From Trypethelium eluteriae (lineage: Eukaryota), in contig JAVECL010000016.1 of NCBI GenBank assembly GCA_051942245.1, positions 1-64,000 on the forward strand: a stretch of DNA of 64,000 bases, given 5' to 3'. Both the position numbers and the translations under genes were made by a program. Below are positions 49,635 to 50,717 of the stretch, in pieces. The notes beneath the pieces are model-generated. The model was not told the origin of the DNA, made no database searches, and saw nothing but the letters and a program-made list of their open reading frames with translations. Each line of letters starts with the position of its first letter. Within the stretch, counting starts at the first letter, position 1.

Positions 49635-50717
49635 ATGAAAATGCAGCATAGAGTGTCTCTTGTTGGCGCCGGGCCAGCCGGATTTGCCCTCGCGATTGAT
49701 CTGGAGAAGCGCGGTACAAATGTGCTAGTCTATTCACATCCGAGCCACCTACGGCATGTCAACGACGTCCAAGACAAAGGTCTACTGACAGTTCGCGGCA
49801 AATTGGAGGGATCTACAGTGCTGCGAATCACTTCTAATATGAGGGATGTGATCGGATTCTCAAACCTCATCATCCTTACAGTCCCATCTACCGGACAGGA
49901 GACGGTGCTGCAAGAGTTGAAAAAATTCTCTCTGCATCAACATACGATCGTGGCAGTACCGGGAAATTTATTCGGGCTTGTTGCAGAAATGGAGGTTCGA
50001 TGTATCGTCGAAACCAATCTATCACCATATTCGTGTAGGATGGATGAAGAGCGACTGGTCGTTTTGGGCAAGAAGCATCTTGTCTTCATCGCGGCACTCC
50101 AGAAGGATCCAGGCCTAGAGATCCAGGAAACTATGAAGCGCATATTCCCTTTAGAGCTTAAATGGTGTAGCAATGTCGTCGAAGTCTGCTTATTGAATGT
50201 CAATGGGGTCTTCCATCCGTTAATGATGTTAATGAACGCTGGCCGCATTGAAAATACAGACGGAAACTTTCTTCTTTATCGAGACGGCCTGACTCGCTCC
50301 GTCGCTAACGCTATGCTTGCTGTCGACCGCGTGCGTATGGAAGTAGGCGAAGCATTCGGATTCCGTATGAAGAGTGCCGTAGAGATATCGAATGAGTGCT
50401 ATGATCAGAGTTTCACCGACCTTATTGACTTGGCTCAAAACTCGGGACCGCATAACAAATTGAAAGCCCCGTCAGATCTTGAAAACCGAAACATCTCGGA
50501 GGATGTTTCTGACCTACTGATATCTTGGCACAGTCTGGCTGAAAAGCTTGGAATAGACGCTTCCCCTATCAGAGCCATCGTCGTGCTCATCGAAATGGCT
50601 ACTGGTGTCAACTATTTCAAAATTGGGAGAGATCTTTATAAGCTCCATCTGCAGGACGTCTCCCGAAACGAGCTCATTCAAAGATTCGGTCCCTCAACGA
50701 GGCAGAACGGTCACTAG
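49635..50717 (+). CDS. NAD(P)-dependent opine (octopine/nopaline-type) dehydrogenase, intronless
   Basis: Rossmann GAGPAG; NVNGVFHP..MNAGRIE..Y.DGLT..V..AVDRVR..R..EDV..GR.L.KL pattern of Arthrobacter-type N-(1-carboxyethyl) amino acid dehydrogenases. Confidence 0.88.
   Translation: MKMQHRVSLVGAGPAGFALAIDLEKRGTNVLVYSHPSHLRHVNDVQDKGLLTVRGKLEGSTVLRITSNMRDVIGFSNLIILTVPSTGQETVLQELKKFSLHQHTIVAVPGNLFGLVAEMEVRCIVETNLSPYSCRMDEERLVVLGKKHLVFIAALQKDPGLEIQETMKRIFPLELKWCSNVVEVCLLNVNGVFHPLMMLMNAGRIENTDGNFLLYRDGLTRSVANAMLAVDRVRMEVGEAFGFRMKSAVEISNECYDQSFTDLIDLAQNSGPHNKLKAPSDLENRNISEDVSDLLISWHSLAEKLGIDASPIRAIVVLIEMATGVNYFKIGRDLYKLHLQDVSRNELIQRFGPSTRQNGH

Follow-up and report, generated by a model that had tools for sequence, protein, structure and literature searches.

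An opine dehydrogenase gene in a candidate copper metallophore cluster of Trypethelium eluteriae

Two fungal gene clusters, described independently and under different names, provide the background for the locus considered here. The Trichoderma harzianum cluster comprises seven genes called "plant communication associated" (PCA1-7), has bidirectional pca1/pca2 and pca3/pca4 promoters, and is induced up to 1000-fold near the plant or on plant recognition, and deletion of pca1 or pca5 abolishes root colonisation (PMC12855858). In the same plant experiment an unlinked ferric reductase rose 21-fold and an unlinked Ctr copper transporter 31-fold, and the authors were unable to give the cluster's product a name (PMC12855858). 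The second cluster, the CRC of Pseudogymnoascus destructans (VC83_01834-01838), holds a reductase, an MFS transporter, an opine dehydrogenase (ODH), an S-adenosylmethionine (SAM) enzyme and a cytochrome P450 (PMC12113139, PMC13208438). Its RNAs, including those of the ODH and the SAM enzyme, go up on copper withholding and down on overload (PMC12113139), and at the protein level the ODH is up 20-fold and the SAM enzyme 70-fold (PMC13208438). In Discula, the ODH shares its regulation with a ferric reductase and a Ctr transporter (bioRxiv 10.1101/2025.08.04.668385), carriers of the cluster are patchy, with Aspergilli and yeasts reported to be without it (PMC12855858, PMC13208438), and both the PCA and the CRC groups speculate on an opine metallophore (PMC12855858, PMC12113139). 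Here we describe a cluster of the same seven families as PCA1-7 in Trypethelium eluteriae, in a stretch of 64,000 nucleotides (GenBank assembly GCA_051942245.1, contig JAVECL010000016.1, positions 1 to 64,000, forward strand; hereafter the window), with attention to its ODH gene at 49635..50717.

We lean towards the reading that this ODH is the scaffold-forming enzyme of a copper-shortage-induced, Mac1-controlled cluster that makes an opine-type copper metallophore. The evidence contributed here consists of family membership, catalytic residues, fold, synteny and a promoter element, and the induction by copper withholding is taken from the published work on P. destructans; we infer the substrates, product, metal binding and cofactor. 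A metalloreductase, ODH, MFS transporter, methyltransferase and P450 form the conserved core of the cluster, and a Ctr transporter and a Tri101-like acyltransferase are present here as in Trichoderma. What is new is a promoter palindrome which, judged by its letters, would link this published, unsolved cluster to Mac1.

Family, fold and catalytic residues of the opine dehydrogenase

The ODH gene is orthologous to PCA4 of T. harzianum and to PdOpDH of P. destructans; it is a single exon on the forward strand and encodes 360 aa from ATG to stop. The Pfam family Octopine_DH (PF02317) matches residues 177-322 over profile positions 1-149 of 150 (E=1.3e-44, 152.3 bits against a cut-off of 30). The Rossmann half draws weak Pfam matches only, to G3P-DH_N (NAD_Gly3P_dh_N; 3.1e-07, residues 7-107) and ApbA (1.7e-04), and the prokaryote-centred NCBIfam adds just sub-threshold G3PDH and PanE matches within residues 1-108; the GxGxxG motif of this half, G11-A-G13-P-A-G16, is invariant across 26 orthologs. 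By sequence, the closest solved structure is Arthrobacter CENDH (1bg6; E=6.1e-24, aligned over 8-342). An AlphaFold (AF2) model made from the 26 orthologs has a pLDDT of 85 and a strand-helix-strand pattern at its N-terminus, and a Foldseek search with it returns 1bg6 first (E=6.3e-22, TM 0.84/0.86). The following ten matches are all opine dehydrogenases, including the pseudopaline, yersinopine and staphylopine dehydrogenases and the octopine dehydrogenase of the scallop Pecten (TMq 0.65-0.69), and ketopantoate reductases rank behind all of these. On its sequence and modelled fold, 49635..50717 is an intact CENDH-like opine dehydrogenase gene. A first-pass annotation of this DNA had proposed an opine dehydrogenase, which the profile, sequence and fold matches bear out, and had named glycerol-3-phosphate dehydrogenase or ketopantoate reductase as the best profile match that would speak for another identity; the best match proved to be Octopine_DH, with the Rossmann half matching G3P-DH_N and ApbA only weakly.

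The residues expected of a working enzyme are in place. H194 of ODH (in NVNGVFHP) aligns with H202 of CENDH, and R285 and D290 (in NRNISEDV) align with CENDH R292 and D297; in 46 distant representatives H194 and R285 never vary, and D290 is kept in at least 90%. The catalytic role of this His and of the Arg/Asp pair is known from the structures of CENDH and octopine dehydrogenase, and the earlier proposal that ODH retains them holds residue by residue. We predict that ODH joins an amino acid to a 2-oxo acid by reductive condensation at the expense of NAD(P)H, as other opine dehydrogenases of this type do. At the acidic end of strand 2, where CENDH carries D34, ODH has S34 (in VLVYSHPSH). The Y-S-H-P-x-H segment is nearly invariant: H35 is invariant in the 26 orthologs, SHP is found in 93 of 119, and HPxH is kept in the distant representatives. 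Loss of the acidic residue, with His and Arg nearby, is the usual signature of NADPH preference in Rossmann folds, so that the conserved YSHP motif makes NADPH use by ODH plausible.

Among 1.8 billion representatives searched, 984 proteins match ODH at E <= 1e-10, and the close orthologs all fall in one 50% cluster. The nearest protein, at 99% identity, belongs to Viridothelium virens, a lichen-forming Dothideomycete. Orthologs with 63-80% identity are spread over Dothideomycetes, Leotiomycetes, Sordariomycetes (Trichoderma, Metarhizium, Chaetomiaceae, Diaporthe), Arthoniomycetes and one Eurotiomycete, Talaromyces islandicus, with those of Trichoderma virens and Metarhizium at 65-66%. The C-termini of these proteins differ. 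An -SRL end occurs in 28 of 119 full-length orthologs and a relaxed peroxisomal PTS1 pattern in 36 of them, which suggests a peroxisomal location for the orthologs ending in -SRL; in the window ODH (C-terminus at 50700-50714) and its relatives in Trypetheliales the end is -NGH or -NGP, with no peroxisomal signal. Parts of fungal siderophore synthesis are peroxisomal.

Conserved neighbourhood and promoter element

A scan of metagenome contigs gave 56 loci, of which L001-L022 carry ODH orthologs or close paralogs, and these were searched by tblastn with pieces of the window genes. ODH itself is a single unbroken match in 20 of the 22; in L022 it falls into two overlapping pieces, and in L014 it has an 11-codon insertion. 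The order ODH (+), MFS (-), methyltransferase (-), P450 (+) recurs in the orthologous loci, with a methyltransferase beside ODH in 19 of 22 and an MFS transporter in 16 of 22, and the loci without a methyltransferase match (L014, L015 and L017) are contigs of just 3.6-3.8 kb. A ferric reductase lies immediately upstream of ODH in four of the seven loci scanned with Pfam. The methyltransferase is better conserved than ODH, at 68-87% identity among the matches listed, and the locus tags of the two genes are adjacent or near-adjacent in five named genomes.

The promoters of these loci share one element. Strand-specific 7-mers were counted in the 800 bp upstream of ODH in 16 loci, with those same loci as background, and in this unbiased enrichment the top ten are all fragments of GAGCAAACTTGCTCAcc; AACTTGC occurs in 12 and TTGCTCA in 11 of the 16 upstream regions (p ~ 1e-9). 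The palindrome GAGCAA-N2-TTGCTC, allowing up to two mismatches, lies 0.24-1.7 kb upstream of ODH in all 15 loci with enough upstream sequence, compared with a background of five matches across control loci totalling 298 kb. Of the published PCA motif, positions 2-16 match exactly, once each, in 11 of the 56 loci, always upstream of ODH. Over all loci, TTGCTCA reaches 0.76/kb in cluster promoters and 0.16/kb elsewhere, a density 4.7 times as high. The palindrome of one locus (L022:9610-9623) reads GAGCGA-AC-TCGCTC, with both halves changed jointly and the symmetry kept, as one would expect where a dimer or two inverted monomers bind.

In Fusarium oxysporum, chromatin immunoprecipitation sequencing of Mac1 yields the motif DHNTGCTCANNN; in yeast the consensus reads TTTGCTCA (PMC11563359). 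Compared letter by letter with these, the half-site of the palindrome is the Mac1 copper-response core, and the palindrome as a whole equals the "novel" PCA motif, for which no match was reported by those who described it in Trichoderma (PMC12855858). We take the palindromic element, GAGCAAACTTGCTCA, as the candidate target sequence of a Mac1 ortholog. Since the PCA motif consists of inverted Mac1-type half-sites and since the unlinked reductase and Ctr genes are induced as well, we interpret the PCA response as a reaction to copper starvation of the Mac1 type.

In the window, the promoter shared by the acyltransferase and ODH genes carries a degenerate copy of the palindrome (49161..49181, +). 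Its left half has decayed, its right half-site TTGCTCA (aaacTTGCTCAcatgc) stands at 49175-49181, 460 nt upstream of the ODH ATG, and the flanks aaacTTGCTCAc-tgc agree with the consensus of the orthologous loci. Further TTGCTCA half-sites lie in the bidirectional reductase/Ctr promoter (46107..46113, -) and some 116 nt before the ATG of the methyltransferase gene (54015..54021, -), and with a site upstream of the adjoining transcription factor gene (42943-42949, -) the TTGCTCA sites of the window precede the transcription factor, reductase, ODH and methyltransferase genes. The broader TTGCKCR is not enriched across the window (43 matches, 40 expected); TTGCTCA at the cluster promoters alone stands out. 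A further site at 54708 (+) and a two-mismatch palindrome at 54700 were discounted, as they may fall in the first exon or 5' untranslated region of the P450 gene. A one-mismatch palindrome, GAGCAAGATTGCTG, is present at 61525-61538, between a second P450 gene (59687..61402) and an open reading frame (ORF) of SMP-30/gluconolactonase type (62232..63308).

ODH is the fourth of seven clustered genes, all of which lie between 43.5 and 56.3 kb in the window. On one side, a PCA1-like ferric/cupric reductase (43514..45735, -; several exons, start codon not fixed; Ferric_reduct, FAD_binding_8 and NAD_binding_6) is divergent from a PCA2-like Ctr copper transporter with a Met-rich N-terminus (46375..46990, +; exons 46375-46829 and 46879-46990; PF04145 at 3.5e-12 and 4.2e-07), and a PCA3-like Tri101-type acyltransferase (47427..48821, -; single exon, 464 aa; TRI-like_N 1.3e-60, Transferase 8.6e-18) is divergent from ODH. 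On the other, a PCA5-like MFS transporter in three ORF pieces (50905..52773, -; start codon not fixed) is convergent with ODH and is followed by a class I SAM methyltransferase resembling PCA6 and PdSAM (53120..53899, -; single exon, 259 aa) and by a PCA7-like cytochrome P450 (54725..56321, +; three or more exon pieces, with neither first exon nor start codon fixed). The methyltransferase matches Methyltransf_11/25/31, and among solved structures it is closest to 3ccf, phosphoethanolamine N-methyltransferase and trans-aconitate methyltransferase. Adjoining the cluster is a gene for a Mac1-like copper-fist transcription factor (40653..42610, -), whose C-terminal half holds a CTCGDDCTCFGCPMH motif that presumably corresponds to the copper-sensing Cys/His repeats of Mac1, which it resembles. 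Contigs from one public run (run X1), presumed by guess to be RNA, join across the Ctr intron (46829>46879, removing 46830-46878, GT..AG) and across two reductase introns (the joints skip 45019-45071 and 45181-45239), which confirms these two gene models. Other contigs of this run cover the acyltransferase at 48105-48504 and the methyltransferase at 53222-53564 and 53640-53850, and the run has none over ODH, MFS, P450 or the transcription factor, which is uninformative either way.

Pfam scans covered 51 ORFs of the window and found no nonribosomal peptide synthetase, polyketide synthase or terpene synthase among them, which leaves ODH as plausibly the only scaffold-forming enzyme nearby. The first-pass annotation had already cast ODH in that role; the copper context, that is the reductase, the Ctr transporter, the Mac1-like factor, the copper-response element and the kinship with PCA and CRC, was absent from it. 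The same scans found no member of the nicotianamine-synthase-like (CntL) family. Between the two P450 genes lies a 285-codon ORF without a Pfam match (57099-57953, +), and 20-25 kb upstream of the cluster are a multicopper oxidase gene (27687-29057, +), which adds one more copper-related gene to the window, and an AMP-binding, acyl-CoA-synthetase-like gene (23050-25041, -). An ORF of the alcohol acetyltransferase (AATase) family is found at 5313-6869 (+), 43 kb from ODH, and no isocyanide synthase was seen in the window; AATase is also the family name of CrmB in the Mac1-regulated isocyanide cluster (PMC11563359).

Proposed function, origin and competing explanations

If the cluster does make an opine-type copper metallophore, a Mac1-type copper-fist activator would most likely switch it on under copper shortage through the TTGCTCA-based element. 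In the first committed step, ODH with NADPH would form an imine by condensing a 2-oxo acid with an amino acid or amine and would reduce this imine, giving an N-(1-carboxyalkyl) amino acid, that is, an iminodicarboxylate chelator scaffold. The methyltransferase, P450 and acyltransferase would then tailor this scaffold by methylation, hydroxylation and acylation, the MFS transporter would export the finished molecule, and the cell-surface reductase and Ctr transporter would recover copper from the complex. Because ODH is small, soluble and intronless, it should offer an easy entry to the product of the cluster through an in vitro substrate screen. A more far-reaching claim, for which we put the chances somewhat short of even, is that this is the first eukaryotic opine-type copper metallophore (chalkophore) system, built by a CENDH-like, NADPH-dependent ODH without a nicotianamine-synthase step, placed under Mac1-type control through the palindrome, and served by reductive release and Ctr uptake.

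Several findings weigh against the proposed copper metallophore. No member of the cluster has an established product or metal binding, and the metallophore is a prediction. The SAM enzyme belongs to the ordinary class I methyltransferases and is not nicotianamine-synthase-like, so the bacterial pathway cannot simply be transferred to the fungal cluster, and ODH is nearer to CENDH than to the metallophore dehydrogenases, with which it shares 11-15% identity. The full seven-gene arrangement is not seen around ODH in the metagenome loci: within 10 kb of ODH, the acyltransferase, the Ctr transporter and a reductase of the window type were found in none of the 22, and the reductase that those loci do carry is only 23% identical to that of the window. 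Nor is the copper-fist gene near ODH in these 22 loci, and its position beside the cluster in the window may therefore be due to chance. At the level of regulation, the window ODH promoter keeps a half-site only, a lone TTGCTCA being expected about 0.13 times by chance in 800 bp, and the PCA motif with up to one mismatch has zero matches in the window.

A separate question is where the gene came from. ODH might be a "bacterial-type" gene that entered fungi from bacteria and for this reason has no introns, an origin that the first-pass annotation had raised as possible. Most of the opine dehydrogenase family is prokaryotic, ODH is intronless in all orthologs seen, and in our tree a wider clade of 41 rows (support 100) mixes sequences from Mycena, Penicillium, Xylariaceae, Fusarium and Sporormia with those of Stenotrophomonas and Agrobacterium vitis. 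The tree (93 rows, quick search, LG+G4) is unrooted, its taxon labels come from 20 look-ups and most representatives are unlabelled, so the direction of a transfer cannot be read from it. Within it the ODH orthologs form one clade of 15 rows (SH-aLRT 94) from at least five classes of Pezizomycotina. Beside this clade stand P0122, P0123 and an Ophiocordyceps clade in a joint set of 19 rows (support 97), and the closest outgroups are fungal wherever labelled; one of them, P0122, is the ODH of locus L019 and sits in the same reductase-ODH-MFS-methyltransferase cluster. These fungal outgroups make an entry from bacteria doubtful, as do the low identity of the nearest named bacterial sequences (30-33%), a GC content of 0.481 in ODH against 0.490 in the window, and the acyltransferase and methyltransferase genes, which are intronless too. 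There is no sign of a recent bacterial transfer, the GC content being native and two neighbours intronless; an ancient one, in either direction, may have taken place. The remark that ODH lacks introns unlike most of its neighbours stands for ODH itself and for the reductase, Ctr, MFS, P450 and transcription factor genes, which have introns, and fails for the two single-exon neighbours. A single-protein locus scan with a Stenotrophomonas-type representative gave no confirmed locus.

Movement of the cluster from fungus to fungus fits the available sequences, since the topology of the orthologs departs from the species tree and carriers are patchy. The ODH of the Eurotiomycete Talaromyces islandicus is nested among Hypocreales, a very short distance from those of Metarhizium and Trichoderma virens, and the ODH of Lentithecium, a Dothideomycete, groups with those of Sordariomycetes.

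With regard to function, the cluster might instead make a signalling or defensive secondary metabolite for "plant communication" that has no role in metal uptake, in which case the copper genes would share just its regulation or location. An induction that reaches 1000-fold when a plant is recognised, and the failure of pca1 and pca5 deletion mutants to colonise roots (PMC12855858), are what such a product would lead one to expect, and acyltransferases, P450s and methyltransferases are typical of secondary metabolism. We nevertheless hold this to be unlikely. The co-induction of an unlinked ferric reductase (21-fold) and an unlinked Ctr transporter (31-fold) has the look of a copper-starvation regulon (PMC12855858), the PCA motif is an inverted pair of Mac1-type half-sites, and the P. 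destructans cluster is induced directly by copper withholding (PMC12113139, PMC13208438).

Another view would make ODH a terminal redox-balancing dehydrogenase: copper shortage cripples cytochrome oxidase, opine formation re-oxidises NAD(P)H, and the MFS transporter exports the waste. Marine invertebrates make opines in anoxia for redox balance, and the Pecten octopine dehydrogenase belongs to the same family and is similar in fold (TMq 0.66-0.69). Induction by copper withholding (PMC12113139, PMC13208438) agrees with this view, but PdOpDH ranks only 961st in abundance among the proteins detected in copper-starved cells (PMC13208438), a low place for an enzyme of bulk fermentation. In addition, a Ser is conserved in place of the acidic residue that favours NADH, and the tight linkage to a methyltransferase and a P450 would be superfluous; we judge such a role very unlikely. 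Opine dehydrogenases are reversible, and the bacterial source of CENDH can grow on compounds of this kind. That ODH runs oxidatively and degrades environmental opines for nitrogen or carbon, with the MFS transporter as an importer, we nonetheless give almost no weight, for while fungi can use opines as a nitrogen source (PMC12855858), this leaves the copper regulation and the linkage to reductase, Ctr and tailoring enzymes unexplained, and the predicted NADPH preference would suit biosynthesis.

Should the copper metallophore reading be right, the "plant communication" induction of Trichoderma would really be a copper-starvation response, and the molecule would serve lichen fungi to extract copper from bark or rock or to compete for it with the photobiont. 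Siderophores are the known iron scavengers of fungi, and isocyanides play that part for copper in some species; an opine copper carrier would add a third chemistry. The cluster is widespread in Pezizomycotina, with carriers as diverse as a bat pathogen, biocontrol Trichoderma, insect-pathogenic Metarhizium and lichen fungi.

Comparison with known systems

The enzyme most like ODH is CENDH, which has 359 aa to the 360 of ODH, aligns with it from end to end, shares its His, Arg and Asp, and superimposes on its model with a TM of 0.84-0.86. The two differ in sequence, being 24% identical in the structural alignment, and at the end of strand 2, where Asp34 of CENDH, which uses NADH, contrasts with the fungal Ser34-His-Pro-x-His. 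CENDH is moreover a stand-alone bacterial enzyme, whereas the window ODH lies in a cluster of metal-regulated type.

The staphylopine, pseudopaline and yersinopine (Cnt) pathways of bacteria are alike in logic, each combining an opine dehydrogenase with a SAM-using enzyme and an exporter under metal-starvation control. They differ in that CntL is nicotianamine-synthase-like, whereas the SAM enzyme of the window is a class I methyltransferase, and in that CntM-type enzymes are about 70 residues longer than the window ODH and 11-15% identical to it; they have the same fold, but at TMq 0.65-0.69 match the model clearly less well than CENDH. Their signal is zinc, in contrast to copper through a Mac1-type factor, and they use a metallophore importer where we propose re-uptake by reductase and Ctr. 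The analogy is one of function, and we claim no family membership from it.

Among fungal systems, the isocyanide chalkophore cluster (crm) is likewise a copper-starvation cluster, bound by Mac1, with TGCTCA sites and transporters (PMC11563359). It differs in its isocyanide synthase-NRPS chemistry, and no such enzyme was found in the window. P. destructans has no isocyanide synthases according to the authors who described its cluster (PMC12113139), so the isocyanide and opine-type systems may be alternatives. The fungal "opine synthase" of Kong et al. 2024 is a PF18631 cucumopine-synthase-like protein unrelated to the ODH family (PMC12536604), and was set aside. A gene for a "SAM domain-containing protein" (FOXG_07771) lies in a cluster with ctr3/fre9 in F. 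oxysporum and is bound by Mac1 (PMC11563359, Table 1); the pairing of a copper-starvation SAM enzyme with Ctr and Fre genes may extend further than ODH does.

The closest likeness is to the PCA cluster of T. harzianum, with which the window shares the seven families, the divergent reductase/Ctr and acyltransferase/ODH pairs and the gene order as described, and to the CRC of P. destructans, with which it overlaps in reductase, MFS transporter, ODH, SAM enzyme and P450. Compared with both, the window host is a lichen-type Dothideomycete, a Mac1-like gene adjoins the cluster, the promoters have half-sites only, and ODH is without the -SRL end found in 28 of 119 orthologs. PCA and CRC, named for different phenotypes, appear to be one system, and the palindrome would provide the direct regulatory link between them.

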